From Stegostoma tigrinum (Eukaryota), in contig NC_081387.1 in the NCBI RefSeq assembly GCF_030684315.1, positions 6,242,497 to 6,306,496 of the forward strand: a stretch of 64,000 nt of DNA. The letters are read 5' to 3'. Below are positions 40,892 through 60,731 of the stretch, one piece after another (positions within the stretch are counted from its first letter, which is position 1; each line of letters opens with the position of its first letter). Under the pieces are notes generated by a model. It did not search any database. It saw only the letters and a program-made list of their open reading frames with translations, and was not told where the DNA came from. The translations under genes and the position numbers were made by a program.

Positions 40892-41000
40892 CTGAATAGA
40901 GACAGTGCATCCCCAGAATGTTGATGACCCTTTTCTCCATTTGCCTGTGTTTTTCCTGGGTCTCTCCTGGTAAGTACAGAATTCAGCTTTCCCTTCCCTC

Positions 41001-41630: not shown

Positions 41631-44600
41631 GGAAAGCACAAACCAGCCCTCAGGTTATCCTGAATTCCTCACTCCTGGTAATCCCTGGTTAGCAGTGTCC
41701 ATTTAATATTTCTCTTCAATTTATTCCAGGTTTCTGTTCCAGGTTAGTGATTGCATCGGTGTGACCCGGCCACTGTTTCAGGTCAGCGATCTTCTGTTTC
41801 CTCCTCCAGTCCCTGGATTGTGGCCCAGCCTCTCCCCTGTGTCCACACTGATTCCATTGAGTGTCTCTGTGACTCTGATTCCGTGTTTACTCCCTGTTCT
41901 GAGAGGCTGCAGTATCTAATTCTGACCCAGTTCAATCTGATTCTGTTCATAATATCTGACAGGAATCTGACAGTGTGATGAAGTGGTGGATTATTGCAGA
42001 TTGGCACCATATGGGAGGGGCCTCATGAGGATGAGCTGGAAGTGTGTGTAAATGTTCATTAGCCTGTACCTAATATTTGATTTACAGAGACAACATGTTT
42101 AAAGTTAGTCTCTCACATTAGTGACGCCCTTGGGATTTGTGATGTTGCCACGGTCGGTGAAGCCCAAATACATGAATATGATGTTTTTCATGCTGGGCTT
42201 CAGTTACCAGCTACTTTCAATGTTTGCTTTACAGAGACTAATGTGCACACTGGGATTTACACAGCGGTTTCTGGAATTCAAGACTTGCCTGAGGTGATGC
42301 ATATGGCAATGGTCAATGGAATTAAAATAAGTTCTGGTGACAGTAAAACCGGTCAGTGCATCCCGAGGCAGCAGTTCATGGTAGAATCTTTCAATGCGAA
42401 ATTCTGGGATTCTGTCACAAGCATGGTGCACCAATGTGCAAACACAGCAAAGGAAATTTTGAGTACAATAATGAAGAGGACAAGCCAGACATCTGGTAAG
42501 GTGTCAGAGATAATGGGAACTGCAGATGCTGGAGAAACCGAGATAACAAAGTGTGGAGCTGGATGAACACAGCAGGCCAACCAGCATCTCAGGAGCACAA
42601 AAGCTGACGTTTTGGGCCCAGATGCTTCATCAGAAATGGGGGCGAGGGAGAGCGTTCTGAAATAAATAGGGAGAGAGGGGGAGGCAGATAGAGGATGGAT
42701 AGAGGAGAAGATAGGTGGAGAGGAGATAGACAGGTTAAAGAGCAGGGGATGGAGCCTGGAGAGGTGAGTGCAGGTGGGGAGGTAGGGAGGGGATAGGGCA
42801 AGGGGGGTGAGATGAGATTAATAGGAAGGAAATGAGGGTGCGGCTTGAGGTGGGAGAAGGGGACAGGTGAGAGGAGGAACAGGTTAGGGAGGGGGGAACA
42901 AGCTAGGCTGGTCTTGGGATGCAGTAGGGGGAGGGGAGATTTTGAAACTTGTGAAATCCACCTTGATACCATTGGGCTGCAGGGTTCCCAAGCGGAATAT
43001 GAGTTGCTGTTTCTGCAACCTTTGGGTGGCATCATTGTGGCACTGCAGGAGGCAAGGATGGACATGTAAGCGGTTCCCAAGCCTCCGCTTGGTTTCCCCA
43101 ATGTAGAAGAGGCCACACCGTGTACAGCGGATGCAGTATACCACATTGGCAGATGTGCAGGTGAACCTCTGCTTAATATGGAAAGTCTTCTTGGGGCCTG
43201 GGATGGGGGTGAAGGGGGAGGTGTGGGGGCAGGTGTAGCACTTCCTGTGGTTGCAGGGGAAGGTGTCGGGTGTGGTGGGGTTGGCGGACAAGGGAGTCCC
43301 AGAGAGAATGGTCCCTCCGGAAGGCAGGTAAGGGTAGGGATGGAAAAGTGTCTTTGGTGGTGGGGTCCGATTGCAGATGGCGGAAGTGTCAGAGGATGAT
43401 GTGTTGGATCCGGAGGTTTGTAGGGTGGTATGTGAGGACAAGGGGTACACTCTTTTGGTTGTTATTGCGGGGACGGGGTGTGAGGGATGAATTGCGGGAA
43501 ATGCAAGGGACATGGACAAGGGCATTCTCGACCACTGTGGGGGGGCGGGGGGAGGTTGCAGTCCTTGAAAAGCAAGAGCATCTGAGATGTACGGGAGAGG
43601 AATGCCTCATCCTGGGAGCAGATGCGGCGGAGGCGAAGTAATTAGGAAGAGGGAATGGCATTTTTGCAGGAAGGTGGGTGGGAGGACGTGTATTCTAGGT
43701 AGTTGTGGGAGTCAGTGGGCTTTAAATGGAGGTCAGAGATAATGGGAACTGCAGATGCTGGAGAATCCAAGATAATAAAATGTGGGGCTGGATGAACACA
43801 GCAGGCCAAGCAGCATCTCAGGAGCACAAAAGCTGACGTTTCGGGCCTAGACCCTTCATCAGGGAGGGGTATGGGGAGATGATTCTGAAATAAATAGGGA
43901 GAGAGGGGGAGGCGGACTGAAGATGGATAGAGGAGAAGATAGGTCGAAAGGAGAGTATGGGTGGGAAGGTAGGGAGGAGATAGGTCAGTCTAGGGAAGAC
44001 GGACAGGTCAAGGTGGCGGGATGAGGTGGTAGGTAGGAAATGGAGGTGCGGCTTGAGGTGGGAGGAAGGGATGGGTGAGAGGAAGAACAGGTTAGGCAGG
44101 TTGGGACGAGCTGGACTGGTTTTGGGATGCAGTGTGGGGAGGGGAGATTTTGAAGCTGGTGAAATCCACATTGATGCCATTGGGCCGCAGTGCTCCAAGC
44201 GGAATATGAGTTGCTGTTCCTGCAACCTACGGGTGGCATCATTATGGCACTGCAGGTGGCCCAGGATGGACATGTCTTCTGAGGAATAGGAGGGGTAGTT
44301 GAAATGGCTCACGACTGGGAGATGCAGCTGTTTACTGTGAACTGAGCATCGGTGTTCTGGAAAGCGGTCCCCAAGCCTCCGCTTGGTTTCCCAAATGTAG
44401 AGGAAGCCACACCGTGTACAATGGATGCAGTATACCACATTGGCGGATGTGCAGGTGAACATCTGCTTGATATGGAAAGTCTTCTTGGGGCCTGGGATGG
44501 GGGTGAAGGGGGAGGTGTGGGGGCAGGTGTAGCACTTCCTGTGGTTGCAGGGGAAGGTGTCGGGTGTGGTGGGGTTGGCGGACAAGGGAGTCCCAGAGAG

Positions 44601-47600
44601 AATGGTCCCTCCGGAAGGCAGGTAAGGGTAGGGATGGAAAAGTGTCTTTGGTGGTGGGGTCCGATTGCAGATGGCGGAAGTGTCAGAGGATGATGTGTTG
44701 GATCCGGAGGTTTGTAGGGTGGTATGTGAGGACAAGGGGTACACTCTTTTGGTTGTTATTGCGGGGACGGGGTGTGAGGGATGAATTGCGGGAAATGCAA
44801 GGGACATGGACAAGGGCATTCTCGACCACTGTGGGGGGGCGGGGGGAGGTTGCAGTCCTTGAAAAGCAAGAGCATCTGAGATGTACGGGAGAGGAATGCC
44901 TCATCCTGGGAGCAGATGCGGCGGAGGCGAAGTAATTAGGAAGAGGGAATGGCATTTTTGCAGGAAGGTGGGTGGGAGGACGTGTATTCTAGGTAGTTGT
45001 GGGAGTCAGTGGGCTTTAAATGGAGGTCAGAGATAATGGGAACTGCAGATGCTGGAGAATCCAAGATAATAAAATGTGGGGCTGGATGAACACAGCAGGC
45101 CAAGCAGCATCTCAGGAGCACAAAAGCTGACGTTTCGGGCCTAGACCCTTCATCAGGGAGGGGTATGGGGAGATGATTCTGAAATAAATAGGGAGAGAGG
45201 GGGAGGCGGACTGAAGATGGATAGAGGAGAAGATAGGTCGAAAGGAGAGTATGGGTGGGAAGGTAGGGAGGAGATAGGTCAGTCTAGGGAAGACGGACAG
45301 GTCAAGGTGGCGGGATGAGGTGGTAGGTAGGAAATGGAGGTGCGGCTTGAGGTGGGAGGAAGGGATGGGTGAGAGGAAGAACAGGTTAGGCAGGTTGGGA
45401 CGAGCTGGACTGGTTTTGGGATGCAGTGTGGGGAGGGGAGATTTTGAAGCTGGTGAAATCCACATTGATGCCATTGGGCCGCAGTGCTCCAAGCGGAATA
45501 TGAGTTGCTGTTCCTGCAACCTACGGGTGGCATCATTATGGCACTGCAGGTGGCCCAGGATGGACATGTCTTCTGAGGAATAGGAGGGGTAGTTGAAATG
45601 GCTCACGACTGGGAGATGCAGCTGTTTACTGTGAACTGAGCATCGGTGTTCTGGAAAGCGGTCCCCAAGCCTCCGCTTGGTTTCCCAAATGTAGAGGAAG
45701 CCACACCGTGTACAATGGATGCAGTATACCACATTGGCGGATGTGCAGGTGAACATCTGCTTGATATGGAAAGTCTTCTTGGGGCCTGGGATGGGGGTGA
45801 AGGGGGAGGTGTGGGGGCAGGTGTAGCACTTCCTGTGGTTGCAGGGGAAGGTGTCGGGTGTGGTGGGGTTGGCGGACAAGGGAGTCCCAGAGAGAATGGT
45901 CCCTCCGGAAGGCAGGTAAGGGTAGGGATGGAAAAGTGTCTTTGGTGGTGGGGTCCGATTGCAGATGGCGGAAGTGTCAGAGGATGATGTGTTGGATCCG
46001 GAGGTTTGTAGGGTGGTATGTGAGGACAAGGGGTACACTCTTTTGGTTGTTATTGCGGGGACGGGGTGTGAGGGATGAATTGCGGGAAATGCAAGGGACA
46101 TGGACAAGGGCATTCTCGACCACTGTGGGGGGGCGGGGGGAGGTTGCAGTCCTTGAAAAGCAAGAGCATCTGAGATGTACGGGAGAGGAATGCCTCATCC
46201 TGGGAGCAGATGCGGCGGAGGCGAAGTAATTAGGAAGAGGGAATGGCATTTTTGCAGGAAGGTGGGTGGGAGGACGTGTATTCTAGGTAGTTGTGGGAGT
46301 CAGTGGGCTTTAAATGGAGGTCAGAGATAATGGGAACTGCAGATGCTGGAGAATCCAAGATAATAAAATGTGGGGCTGGATGAACACAGCAGGCCAAGCA
46401 GCATCTCAGGAGCACAAAAGCTGACGTTTCGGGCCTAGACCCTTCATCAGGGAGGGGTATGGGGAGATGATTCTGAAATAAATAGGGAGAGAGGGGGAGG
46501 CGGACTGAAGATGGATAGAGGAGAAGATAGGTCGAAAGGAGAGTATGGGTGGGAAGGTAGGGAGGAGATAGGTCAGTCTAGGGAAGACGGACAGGTCAAG
46601 GTGGCGGGATGAGGTGGTAGGTAGGAAATGGAGGTGCGGCTTGAGGTGGGAGGAAGGGATGGGTGAGAGGAAGAACAGGTTAGGCAGGTTGGGACGAGCT
46701 GGACTGGTTTTGGGATGCAGTGTGGGGAGGGGAGATTTTGAAGCTGGTGAAATCCACATTGATGCCATTGGGCCGCAGTGCTCCAAGCGGAATATGAGTT
46801 GCTGTTCCTGCAACCTACGGGTGGCATCATTATGGCACTGCAGGTGGCCCAGGATGGACATGTCTTCTGAGGAATAGGAGGGGTAGTTGAAATGGCTCAC
46901 GACTGGGAGATGCAGCTGTTTACTGTGAACTGAGCATCGGTGTTCTGGAAAGCGGTCCCCAAGCCTCCGCTTGGTTTCCCAAATGTAGAGGAAGCCACAC
47001 CGTGTACAATGGATGCAGTATACCACATTGGCGGATGTGCAGGTGAACATCTGCTTGATATGGAAGGTCATCTTGGGGCCTGGGATGGTGGTGAGGGAGG
47101 AGGTGTGGGGGCAAGTGTAATACATCCTGCGGTTGCAGGGGAAAGTGCCGGGTGTGGTGGGGTTGGCAGGGAGTGTGGAGTGGACAAGGGAGTCGTGGAG
47201 AGTGTGGTGTCTCCGGAAGGCAGACAAGCGTGGGGTGGGAAAAATGTCTTTGGTGGTGGGGTCGGATTGTAGATGGCGGAAGTGTCGGAGGATGATGCGT
47301 TGTATCCGGAGGTTGGTGGAGTGGTATGTGAGGACGATGGGGATTCTCTTCTGGCGGTTATTGCAGGGGCAGGGTGTGAGGGATGAGTTGCGGATAATGC
47401 GGGAGACACGGTCGAGGGCGTTCTCGACCACTGTGGAGGGAATGCTCTGGCCCTTGCAGAACGAGGACATCTGGGATGTGCGGGAGTGGAATGCCTCACC
47501 CTGGGAGCAGATGCAGTGGAGGTGAAGGAATTGGGAATAAGGGCTGGAATTTTTGCACGAAGGTGGGTGGACGGATGTGTATTCTAGGTAGCTGTGGGAG

Positions 47601-50600: not shown

Positions 50601-53600
50601 TCAACAAAAGCCACATGTTCACTGGCCATTTCATTGATTTAGCCATGTTCTCAAATGAAACGACAAAGGCTTCCACGGCTTCTCATTGAACTTATGCATT
50701 GCTGATCCCAACTGGGCCAATGGCTGCAGTGAGTTTGCTCATCATCACTATCCTCCTCACTAAGCTTATCTTTTACCTTCATGTTTGCCCTTGTAAGCCA
50801 ACTTTCCTCTCCATTTGACAACTTCTGAAGTTCAAACTCTCTCCTTCTGCTACGACTATTCTCTTCCTCTCTTTTGCTTCCAATACAAGCTGTTCCATTT
50901 GCTATTGAATTTTAGCCAAACCCAAAGATTCCACCTGCAATTTCAGAGATTGTAAATGCCAAGGTATTGCTGTATTTTCCTGCTCTTTTCACACAGACAA
51001 AAGGAACCCCAGCTCCAGCTGGTCTGCCAATTCTAAAAGCACACTTCCTCTAAAGCTCCTGAAGTGACTTTGTCCACCCCTCAGAAACCCATAGTGAGTG
51101 GAAAAGTCATTACTTCACACGGAAAACCCAGTTTAAACTAACCAAATGCAACACTAGCACTTGCCACTCACTGCCTTCAACCTAATGTGGAATTAAAGGT
51201 TTTGATCTGGACTAAAGCCCCCAGTTTATTATGGACCGGATCTGACCCCCTCGAAATATTTTATGAACGTTTCCTTGACCCTCACTTTGTTCTTATTTTA
51301 AATGCAAAAGTAACACGGTGTGTTCCGGGTGCGAGTCAAGTTGTTAAAGTACTCAATGTGATGCAGAACAAAATTTATTCAAACACTACAATTAAAATAC
51401 TACAGAAGAATGGAGAACTTAGAAGAACTTAACCACTGGAAAACTTAGCAGAATAATGGATATAGTAAATATTACTAAGTAAATGTTCAAATATAACATC
51501 CCACGAATACACTCCTTGGCAAAAGGGCAAATTCCAAAATTAGATTTTGTCACATGCAATGCCTGCAATAGGATGGGAAGCCCCATCTTCCAGCTGTAAC
51601 AGAGAGAGGAGAAAGAATAGCTTCTAATTCTTCAAAAGACCAGCAGCCACTCTAAAACCTAAAAGCTGAATAAAATTAGCAATCCTGGTGTGTGAGAGCT
51701 GGCCACCCAGCTTCTATAATTCCAATTTCTACAAACAAAACCCGAAGTGTGACCAGCTGTTTACATGATCATAGACTGCTTGGCATCCCACGTTCAATCT
51801 CCCTCTTAAAAGAACCAGGCAAAATACGCCGATTAAAGCCACAGTAGCATCACATAAACAACTTAGAGATCTACCCTGTTCTCCATTCCATGAAGCTCAG
51901 GGGGACAGAATTCACAGCTCCATGGGTCTGAGTGTCCTCGTAAGTAACACATGGAGTCCGATCGTGGGCCAGGGACTGTGGCAGGCTGACAGACCGGCCA
52001 AGGGTGGCCATGACTAAATTCCCTAGAATGCTACTTGTGGTCTAAACAAATAATGACCTGCAGTGAAAACAGCTATTGCTGGAGAAATTCAGCAGGCCTG
52101 GCAGCAACTGTGCAGAAAAAAATAGAGTCAATTGTTGCAGGTTCAATGACCCTTCTTTAGGATTGACCACATAGACTGGGATTATCGCTCCAGGATTGTG
52201 AGAATGTGAAGACTGAAATTCTGACCCAGATTCAACAGGCATTTTGCTTATTTATGAGACATGAAGCATTCACTAGAGAAAGGGGCAGTGACCTGAGCCT
52301 GGAATATCAGACAATTCAGTTCCTGGGGATTAGCACCATGTGTAACCACTCTCTCAATCCTGTTTGATTGGACCATTTCTCAGTTTGTGAATATTGATTC
52401 ATTATTGATTATTAACCCCGATTTCGTTACTGACAGGAATTCACACTTTTCAACGGATAACTACTGTTGATGTCAGTGATGATGGAAGCATTAAGAGATC
52501 GATGAGATTTGGATTTGATGGAAAGGATTTTATTAGTTTACAACCAGACAGAATGAAATGGATTGCATCCAATCACATTGCAGTGATGACGAAAGAGAAA
52601 TGGGATTCAGATAAATCCTGGAACAACTACTGGGAAGTACATCTGGAAGAGGTACTTGTGCAGAATTTAAACAGATATCTAGAAGCAGCAAAGGGATTTT
52701 TCAAAAGGAAAGGTATGTGTTTCAGTTTTTGATCTCAAGTTCTGATCTAACCTCACTGATCTATGAAACCGATCAACCATTCCATTCCATGTCTGTCTAT
52801 TGTTTCTGTTCTCACCCTTTCCCATCACAGTTCAGCCTGTAGTGTTCATCTCCAGAAATGAGCCCAATCATCAGGACAAGCCGCTCACTCTCTCCTGCCT
52901 GGTCACTGGATTTTATCCTGTAGACATCGAGGTGACCTGGCTAAGGAATGGAGAGGTTGTGTCTGAGACACAATCCTCAGGGATTCGACTGAACCATGAT
53001 GGGACCCATCAGATCCAGAAAGAGATTGGAATCAGTGCTGGGGATGAGGATCAATATTCCTGCCAAATTGAACACAGCAGCATGACAGACACCAGGCTCT
53101 ATCAGTGGGGTAAGGTACTGGACTGTGTGTGTGTCAGTGTCTGTCTGTGTGTGAGTGCATACACATGAATTTGCCTTTTGGCCCCTCAGGCCTGTTTCTC
53201 CCCATTCAGCAAGGTCCTGTCTGATCCTGATCTGTCCCTCACTACCCTTTACCCATTCCTCCTCTATGTCTCTTGCTGCCCTTCCCAAATGAAACCCTCC
53301 TGATCTCGAGCTGGAAACATTCATTTGATCCTCAGTGCTCACAACATTTTGGTGAGATTTCCAGTACAATTTTGTGAGGAAAAGTTGCTTCATTTCACTT
53401 CTAAGTGACCTCACTCTAATTTGAAGATAGTTCCATGTTGTCCTGGATTTCTGTGCCATATAATACCTGCAGTGATTGCAACAGGGTTTCAACAGCTGGA
53501 ACACATAGAATATAAGTTCCTTGATTGGGCTTGTTAACCTGAACCAATCAGGTAGCCCTGACTAACATATAAAATGGGCGAGTGTCAACAATATTGAGAC

Positions 53601-59600: not shown

Positions 59601-60731
59601 TTCCCAGCTATCCCTTCGCCTGTGAATAACCTAACCTATCAACTTTTGAAAGTTCCCATCTAATACTGTCAAAAAGAGCCTGGTGCTTTAGAGACTGCCC
59701 GTATTGGATGTCAAACAAGTTGGAACTCAACCCCTTGCTAAAATGCCCCAGGAAGCTCTCCAAGCCAAATGACTGGCCAAAATCCTTGGGCTCAGGGTTG
59801 GAGGGAAGCAACGATTGTAATGAGACCTCAGAGAATATGAGTTCCATGATTGAACAAGATTAACAGCCCCAATCAGGGAGCCCTGGCTGACAAATAAAAA
59901 GGTCAGCCTCAGAGATGCTGAAATTCTGCTTTCTGTCTCTGAATGAGCCAACACTAACATCAAGGACTATTCAATAAAGGGTGACTTGGTGATGGATACC
60001 AGCCTCTGTTGGAGTTTCTGCAATGGGATTTGGAGAGTAAAATTGGGTGAGGGACAACCCATTTTTTGAACCAATCCTATCAAATCCCAATGGGTGAGTA
60101 CAGTTAAAATTATTCCCAATCAACACAGAACTGGGAATGGATCCAGGAAGAGCGATAATCCTGATATTCTTGCAATTCATTTCAGAAATCCCAGAAAACA
60201 GCACGGAACATTTCCATCTTGTAATTGTTATTGGAATAGTCATTCTAATAGCTTTAATATTTGAAACAGTCATCTGGAAAAGGCCATGGAAAGGTAAGAA
60301 AACCAGAGAGGGAAATTTAGAAATGAGGGTTCACAATCAGTGTGGGAAAATGTCCAGGACTGGAAGTACAGTGCACTGTGTTGAACGGGAACTGATTGAA
60401 ACTCTACACATAAATGCACAAGTATAAACAGGTCTTGCTGACCTGATCTTCCTTTGTGTGATTGGCCCAGGTGAGTTTGAATATTGATCATTAACCAACC
60501 TCGCATACTTACATTCTTTCTGACTGAACATCAATAGAATAGAACAGATCTCCAAAACGTCCATAAAGTGGAAGGATGGAGAGGAGTGTGAGAAAGAGGA
60601 TTTTTTACACAATCTCCATTCCCTTGCATTTGTTGTGTTCTCACTCTCTGAGAATGGATTATTCCCCATTCTAATGGGCATATATTTTGTTTCTGCAGAT
60701 TCACCAAGTGGGACCTATATGCCAGCTCACA
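40918..60731 (+). CDS. MHC class I heavy chain-like gene B (nonclassical-like), multi-exon; terminal exon not identified
   Basis: Exons 40918-40969, 42235-42495, 52437-52712, 52831-53109, 60186-60293, 60699-60731 splice in frame (all phase 1, GT-AG) to leader-alpha1-alpha2-alpha3-TM-cytoplasmic. Confidence 0.92.
42235..42495 (+). CDS. MHC-I gene B alpha1 exon
   Basis: 261 nt; acceptor tgtttgctttacag, donor G|gtaagg; [21 protein letters not shown]...DS...PRQQFM...FWD...KRTSQTS, colinear with gene A alpha1. Confidence 0.9.
42503..48940 (-). mobile_element. Penelope-like element cluster (RT + GIY-YIG) with internal tandem triplication
   Basis: ORF 46406..48181: [42 protein letters not shown]; four terminal-repeat copies starting near 42503, 43732, 45026, 46320; the last three contain CTGATGAAGGGTCTAGGCCCGAAACGTC on the - strand. 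Confidence 0.92.
43178..47060. repeat. Three tandem 1294-bp copies
   Basis: Identical ORFs recur at exact 1294-bp offsets (43270/44564/45858; 43642/44936/46230; 43985/45279/46573). Confidence 0.95.
48960..51855 (-). mobile_element. Degenerate Gypsy (Gmr1-like) LTR element: LTR ~51228-51855, gag, protease, pre-integrase region
   Basis: PBS-like AACTGGGGGC at ~51215-51225 on the - strand; MADDY, decayed knuckle [15 protein letters not shown] protease-like, [14 protein letters not shown]. Confidence 0.6.
52437..52712 (+). CDS. MHC-I gene B alpha2 exon
   Basis: 276 nt; acceptor ttactgacag, donor G|gtatgt; GIHTFQR...[11 protein letters not shown]...W...TKEKWDSD...LEE...LNRYLE. Confidence 0.93.
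52831..53109 (+). CDS. MHC-I gene B alpha3 (Ig C1-set) exon
   Basis: 279 nt; acceptor ctttcccatcacag, donor G|gtaagg; [21 protein letters not shown]...NHDGTHQI...YSCQIEHSS...W. Confidence 0.95.
55305..57005 (-). mobile_element. Degenerate CR1 LINE (continues at ~59200-59690 beyond the nested young CR1)
   Basis: [47 protein letters not shown]. Confidence 0.8.
57006..59195 (+). mobile_element. CR1 LINE, 5'-truncated, young; ORF2 broken by premature stops
   Basis: [49 protein letters not shown], then stop, FADDTK, then [24 protein letters not shown]; ends in (tattgtc)n. Confidence 0.95.
60186..60293 (+). CDS. MHC-I gene B connecting peptide/transmembrane exon
   Basis: 108 nt; acceptor attcatttcag, donor G|gtaaga; [36 protein letters not shown] (hydrophobic run plus basic stop-transfer). 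Confidence 0.88.
60699..60731 (+). CDS. MHC-I gene B cytoplasmic exon
   Basis: 33 nt; acceptor ttttgtttctgcag, donor A|gtaagt; [11 protein letters not shown] contains the YxxA motif typical of the class I cytoplasmic exon. Confidence 0.82.

Follow-up and report, generated by a model that had tools for sequence, protein, structure and literature searches.

The alpha2 domain of MHC class I molecules is braced by a disulfide bond between C101 and C164 (HLA numbering), a bridge regarded as an ancestral MHC feature (PMC8236899). Wu et al. 2021 (PMC8236899) describe how this bridge, together with G100, raises the alpha2 helix and lets W167 close off the end of the groove, and eight residues are listed as anchors (Y7, Y59, R84, T143, K146, W147, Y159 and Y171; Grimholt 2015, PMC4364491). 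Among nonclassical molecules, human MR1 binds ligands as a Schiff base through K43 (PMC11506377), and chicken MHC-Y, the product of an expanded class Ib family, has been solved with N-myristoylated glycine (PDB 9eb3). Extra alpha1 cysteines are described in nonclassical fish class I sequences of the teleost P, S and some U lineages (positions 36/67 in P and U, 6-9/48 in S), where they are conserved within lineages and the alpha2 pair is kept (PMC4364491). Sharks are reported to carry two expanded class Ib families, UBA, which derives from UAA, and the older UEA, alongside single-copy UDA, UFA and UGA (PMC12562908); multicopy UEA is described as clustering with UDA and UFA (Verissimo 2023, PMC10751288).

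The window analysed here, a stretch of 64,000 nucleotides of zebra shark (Stegostoma tigrinum) DNA, contains two class I genes, termed gene A and gene B (Table 1). By its reading frame and exon structure, gene B is intact; it belongs to a multicopy family of nonclassical MHC class I genes found shark-wide. Its seven exons, from 40918 to 61157, form an open frame of 346 codons (stop included) with canonical splice sites throughout, and they show the heavy-chain architecture of leader, alpha1, alpha2, alpha3, transmembrane and cytoplasmic exons in phase 1, with a class I fold. The first 325 residues of the predicted protein agree without exception with the zebra-shark RefSeq model XP_059495577.1 (P0065), which bears the automatic name MR1-like. 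The 3' end of that model is built from other exons, in place of which the window supplies a cytoplasmic tail of the family type; the 127-residue tail of the model looks mis-predicted. The alpha1 letters are the same in contigs of four sequencing runs, all from one sample that is possibly the source of the window itself. In an AlphaFold model of gene B the class I platform is retained, with pLDDT 77-94 across residues 21-190, a prediction that speaks to compatibility with the fold rather than to stability without the bond, given that AlphaFold already knows the MHC fold. A 1294-bp unit resembling a mobile element is repeated in tandem about four times within intron 2, at about 42500-47600, and three of the copies are 97-100% alike.

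Table 1. Positions within the window of the exons and selected codons of genes A and B
Feature	Position	Strand	Remarks
Gene A, class Ib, head-to-head with gene B	33446-33318, 26323-26057, 9285-9010, 8804-8537, about 2835-2668	-	
Gene B exon 1, leader peptide	40918..40969	+	ATG at 40918; agrees with N-terminus of P0065
Gene B exon 2, alpha1 domain (G7, H24, C45, F59, C70, R84, S86)	42235..42495	+	
Gene B Cys45 codon TGC	42357..42359	+	Aligned to MR1 K43; kept in 30/34 of subclade
Gene B Cys70 codon TGT	42435..42437	+	Private to this copy within subclade (His in 30/34)
Gene B Ser86 codon AGC	42483..42485	+	N86 glycosylation site gone; kept in 75/76 family members
Gene B exon 3, alpha2 domain without cysteines	52437..52712	+	
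Gene B Val101 codon GTT, replacing Cys101	52466..52468	+	From alignment to HLA chains
Gene B Trp152 to Trp156, groove-facing aromatics	52619..52633	+	W152 in 75/76, W156 in 76/76
Gene B Leu164 codon CTT, replacing Cys164	52655..52657	+	Site hypervariable across family
Gene B exon 4, alpha3 Ig-C1 domain	52831..53109	+	Both cysteines kept; private P235L
Gene B exon 5, connecting peptide and transmembrane helix	60186..60293	+	Glu versus Gly in orthologue
Gene B exon 6, cytoplasmic, family-type tail with Tyr	60699..60731	+	Predicted; absent from RefSeq model
Gene B exon 7, coding part up to stop TAA	61129..61157	+	Predicted

An earlier note on this DNA had described the alpha2 domain of gene B as free of cysteines, with C101 replaced by valine and C164 by leucine, and translation and alignment to HLA chains confirm both replacements. 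Translation of the alpha2 exon, which is bounded by AG and GT and in phase 1, gives a class I alpha2 domain of 91 residues; its residues 2-89 align to HLA positions 93-180, the alignment from which its numbering is taken. The two alpha1 cysteines that the same note placed near positions 45 and 70 are equally real, being C45 and C70 of exon 2; the HLA numbering of this domain leans on P47-R48 and W60, which we take to be its landmarks, and is further supported by an ungapped alignment to MR1. Loss of the alpha2 cysteines is rare in general, since both are kept in 175 of 186 alpha2 domains from outside the family (only C101 in nine, only C164 in one and neither in one). These domains come from a background set of 150 non-family proteins with 196 alpha2 domains, after exclusion of ten that do not span both sites. 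C164 is missing from nine sporadic non-shark alpha2 domains, and both cysteines from one; these occur in P0167, P0168, P0171, P0173, P0179, P0225, P0249 and P0259, several of them within multi-domain tandem models. HLA alleles with cysteine mutations show low expression, which was not used as evidence here.

The alpha2 exon and a whale-shark paralogue, used as queries in protein searches, recovered a large family that, among the matches listed, spans 13 named shark species in six orders. It includes the squalomorphs Heptranchias (sevengill shark) and Pristiophorus (sawshark), and Galeomorphi and Squalomorphi are thus both represented. All named family-level matches are sharks among the 120 of 152 matches listed, and no relatives between 55% and 42% identity were seen, in word-based and 50%-cluster searches that can hide members. 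The family has several copies per species, including tandem fused models. From 149 proteins, 114 aligned pieces passed a full-length filter, of which 93 were unique (79 family, 14 others); removal of three near-duplicates left 76 non-redundant family rows with full three-domain cores, partial and exon-skipping models being excluded. Excluded RefSeq isoforms of the family (P0061-P0064, P0125 and others) are missing part or all of alpha2, and P0125 joins alpha1 directly to alpha3.

C101 is present in none of the 76 family members. Site 101 is always aliphatic (V in 70, A in three, I in two, L in one), whereas C164 persists in six members scattered across the tree, at a site that is hypervariable, and both alpha3 cysteines are found in 79/79 family rows. 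Loss of the C101-C164 bond is therefore almost certainly an old lineage trait rather than something special to gene B, and these counts lend strong support to the earlier reading of the pattern as lineage-level remodelling rather than decay. In quick trees, as were all trees of this analysis, the family is monophyletic (SH-aLRT 98 and 97) and divides into three main subclades.

By elimination, the family including gene B very probably corresponds to the shark UEA lineage, an assignment made because it is multicopy, is not derived from UAA and adjoins a different class Ib gene that matches PDB 9ch4. That neighbour, gene A, is open from alpha1 to alpha3 and keeps both alpha2 cysteines; its alpha2 matches 9ch4 with an E value of 1e-50, and both are likely UFA or UGA. 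Membership in UBA was rejected on the grounds that the best trees place the family apart from the clade that contains UAA and that it shares only 29% identity with a dogfish classical-type sequence, forming its own clade (SH-aLRT 97-98), though a grouping of family and UAA is not rejected by the AU test (p 0.45). UDA, UFA and UGA, which are single- or low-copy lineages, were set aside because the family is multicopy and only 23% identical to nurse-shark QGX07421.1, which is probably UDA, and 26% to gene A in alpha2. Classical (UAA) identity of gene B was likewise rejected, given that it keeps five of the eight anchors, has V101 and L164 where the C101-C164 pair should be, and with S86 lacks the N86 glycan. 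The UEA locus is marked by a cluster with UDA and UFA between brd2/b2m and hsd17b8/rxrb flanks; the window shows the head-to-head class Ib gene, and the flanks lie outside it. Almeida et al. 2021 is said to describe UEA as restricted to sharks, absent from rays and chimaeras, and divided into three sublineages, reportedly with degenerate anchors, a hydrophobic groove and a distant kinship to UCA. The family tree and groove counts given here fit these traits. The likeness would extend to copy number, an apparent occurrence in sharks only (in the searches made) and in both Galeomorphi and Squalomorphi, origin apart from UAA, a UFA/UGA-like neighbour, degenerate peptide anchors, a more hydrophobic groove, relation to NC1/UCA and three subclades. 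No family-level difference from UEA was found, the only differences being specific to the gene B copy (C70, N86S, P235L and the transmembrane Glu).

No protein match carries the name UEA, and the term is absent from the text of the Verissimo 2023 supplement, whose figure labels may be pictures. A statement that shark UEA or UCA lack the alpha2 cysteines was not found in the literature searched; the primary papers were outside its scope, so this is no sign that the trait is unpublished. Almeida et al. 2021 likely reports the loss, which is obvious in any alignment. The earlier note had held that novelty would fall if the pattern were a documented hallmark of a named lineage, and this largely applies: the loss is a hallmark of the whole lineage, while the identity of that lineage with UEA is likely only. 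Novelty is limited because the family has likely been named already and the gene is in RefSeq.

Outside the family, the same loss is seen in spiny dogfish Sqac-UAA*NC1 (Q8HWI9, AAN78091.1), which we take to be UCA. Like the family, it lacks C101, C164, G100, W167 and Y7; it shares V101, W152 and W156 with gene B, also has valine at 164, and carries the W97 typical of the family. Unlike the family, it has in addition lost T143, K146 and W147. Its alpha2 aligns to that of gene B without gaps at 37% identity, but over alpha1 and alpha2 together the identity is only 27%. NC1 is the favoured sister of the family (SH-aLRT 91-94), which suggests that the loss in the family and NC1 likely had a single origin; no firmer statement is made because the AU test leaves alternatives to this position (p 0.36, 0.45). 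No close relatives of NC1 were found in the protein collection.

The missing bond is one part of a dismantled N-terminal lock, since G100, C101, W167 and Y7 are lost together, each being found in 0/76 members; Y159 persists in 15/76. Gene B itself keeps R84, T143, K146, W147 and Y171 among the eight peptide-terminus anchors and has G7, F59 and H159 in place of the others. Across the family, W147 (76/76), K146 (69/76) and T143 (58/76) are kept, R84 in only 18/76. The F half of the groove carries a conserved aromatic cluster (W133, W156 and M114 in 76/76, W152 in 75/76, W97 in 52/76), and paralogues differ most from one another at the A/B end, with entropies of 2.4-2.7 bits at positions 5, 24, 34, 45, 99, 159, 163, 164 and 167 against an alpha2 mean of 0.94. 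Mean groove hydropathy, averaged over 37 groove positions, is 0.50 in gene B, 0.34 in the family median (range -0.32 to 1.10) and 0.86 in NC1, compared with 0.02 to -0.67 in eight other non-NC1 rows of two shark clades; the family values overlap those of bony-fish outgroups (up to 0.59).

The loss of the cysteines has likely remodelled the groove to accept unusual antigens; a non-peptide ligand for gene B is plausible. The best overall explanation, held with only slightly better than even confidence, is a UEA-type, disulfide-free family with a C-anchored ligand that lacks a free N-terminus. V101 and the aromatic cluster would replace the covalent brace by hydrophobic packing, and the alpha2 helix, so freed, would open or reshape the A/B end. 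An acidic C-terminal end of the ligand would sit in the constant aromatic F half, and a lipid-tailed, blocked or extended N-terminal part would fill the paralogue-specific A/B end, with paralogues presumably differing in how that end is filled. The chain would pair with beta2-microglobulin and might be read by innate-like T or NK receptors. The ligand class itself, an acidic C-terminal end joined to a lipid-tailed, N-blocked or N-extended peptide, is proposed tentatively, at somewhat less than even confidence. A parallel is offered by chicken MHC-Y (YF1*7.1; PDB 3p73, 9eb2-9eb6), which belongs to an expanded class Ib family as gene B does and gives the best PDB match to its alpha2, although the match is weak and its margin slight (E 2.8e-16, against 2.4e-13 for ordinary class I); unlike gene B, MHC-Y keeps both alpha2 cysteines and is separately derived. 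Against the C-anchored ligand stand the scarcity of R84, the chance that T143, K146 and W147 are kept for folding and not for a carboxylate, and the invariant W152 and W156, which could block the groove at its middle so that only small molecules would fit; the faint likeness to MHC-Y, the overlap of hydropathy with outgroups and its wide range within the family weigh in the same direction.

The same groove residues bear on two further readings. The loss of the N-end anchors, the raised hydropathy and the many aromatics would suit a groove that binds pure lipids or hydrophobic metabolites in the manner of CD1 or EPCR, with no peptide part, and the neighbouring UFA/UGA are reported as lipid binders (PMC12562908). 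This is unlikely, however, as K146 and T143 are widely kept, polar or charged residues line the A/B end (R99, H159, H/R167, H70) and the bulky tryptophans would narrow a lipid channel. Somewhat more doubtful is an empty or closed groove, in which the molecule would serve as a ligand-free receptor partner, as MIC or HFE do, and bracing would be dispensable: every N-end anchor has decayed, and the invariant W152, W156, W147, W133 and M114 could fill the cleft, but variation among paralogues is highest precisely at groove-facing A/B positions. Diversification towards a ligand or a receptor at the groove fits this pattern because it is those positions that vary most.

A disulfide-free family of dozens of genes that predates the split of galeomorphs and squalomorphs constitutes a natural experiment on the role of the brace and on folding without it. 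It ties the brace to closure of the N-terminal end of the groove, because G100, W167 and Y7 were lost along with C101. The conserved aromatics of the F half, the variable A/B end and C45 provide concrete residues for mutation.

The earlier note had further proposed an alternative alpha1 disulfide, for which the family gives no support. The C45-C70 pair occurs in 1/76 members, gene B alone, and C70 in only two; the whale-shark orthologue XP_048448350.1, 93% identical over alpha1 and alpha2, has H70. Both sites line the groove in the model, on strand 4 and the alpha1 helix, and strand-to-helix alpha1 pairs have been suggested in the teleost P lineage and in some U sequences, although the proposed pair there is 36-67 and not 45-70 (PMC4364491), and gene B is a single copy where the teleost cysteines are conserved across lineages. 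A substitute bond does not appear to be needed, since 22/76 members have no cysteine at all in alpha1 or alpha2. HLA geometry places residue 67 between 45 and 70, whose C-beta atoms, some 9-11 A apart, would be too distant for a bond. That a C45-C70 disulfide stands in for the lost alpha2 bond is thus extremely improbable, and the extra cysteine pair of gene B is likely incidental. In P0002, P0022 and P0025, C36 occurs together with C45, the two being likely neighbours in the hairpin of strands 3 and 4 and a better candidate for an alpha1 disulfide than 45-70; three other members have C9 with C45, and C71 is found in 8/76.

C45 is the more widespread of the two cysteines, found in 31/76 members, the other 45 carrying M, T, I or S. 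It is present in 30 of the 34 members of a subclade of carpet, mackerel and ground sharks (SH-aLRT 88), where, among the alpha1 groove positions counted, it and H70 share first place in conservation; three of its four losses are to serine. Among its bearers in this subclade, 18/30 have no other cysteine in the groove domains, and no partner recurs consistently. A Cys-His or metal site formed by C45, H24 and H/C70 was considered but set aside, since H70 is common outside the C45 clade too and H24 is rare (4/76).

C45 aligns without gaps to K43 of MR1, which appears as K in 8bp6, as a modified residue X in 4iiq and as A in the K43A mutant 4lcw. MR1 and gene B share the class I fold, with C45 at the Schiff-base position, but MR1 is mammalian and single-copy and keeps the alpha2 disulfide and an aromatic A' cage, and orthology is not implied. 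Identity of gene B with MR1 was rejected in view of the cysteine at the K43 site, G7, H159, N167 and the absent disulfide. The likeness of C45 to K43 is best treated as a positional match only. Nevertheless, the alignment and the conservation over three orders raise the question of whether the thiol of C45 is reactive and forms covalent bonds with small electrophilic ligands in the A/B pocket, converging on K43 of MR1, with the tryptophan cluster bounding a small pocket; R97 and Y155 of gene B, which presumably match R94 and Y152 of MR1, were counted in favour. A family some 350 million years old would on this account have dropped its N-terminal lock, and a three-order subclade would then have gained an unpaired cysteine at the K43 site, yielding a thiol-based covalent presenter. 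Its ligands would be electrophilic metabolites or acylated ligands, with H70 (C70 in gene B) facing C45 across the pocket. Both the reactive thiol and the covalent presenter are very unlikely: 45/76 members lack C45, shared ancestry inflates the conservation count, polymorphism at position 45 is normal for a pocket residue and cysteine there may simply be a small hydrophobic lining, the MR1 cage (Y7, R9, W156, W164) is unmatched, and similarity to MR1 in alpha1 is not significant (E 0.08-0.5).

The condition of the gene B copy deserves separate consideration. Constraint on this copy is likely somewhat relaxed, with Cys70 as a private change that may be drift, because gene B departs from ten well-conserved columns, including N86S and P235L, and has a Glu within its transmembrane helix. 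Outright decay of the copy, with C70 and its other oddities as drift, is rather unlikely, and would in any case leave the family-wide alpha2 loss unexplained. For decay speak the ten departures, counted at columns with conservation of 90% or more (fourth-ranked of 76, the median being 4; orthologue 4), N86S as the sole case in 76, P235L, the transmembrane Glu and an end branch of 0.084 against 0.015 in the whale-shark orthologue; the whale shark may, however, evolve slowly, and the open frame and canonical splice sites on all seven exons point the other way. In addition, 7/8 residues around position 70 differ from the orthologue, for which selection or conversion is equally possible. With the N86 site lost, the only sequon of gene B lies in the membrane-proximal stalk.

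The leader exons of gene A and gene B, on opposite strands, are near-identical, and the same leader is found in the probable UDA clade. The first 43 residues of the RefSeq family model P0074 match the leader exon of gene A at 100%. Leaders may be shared or converted among lineages that are otherwise 23-29% identical, or the model may be mis-joined.
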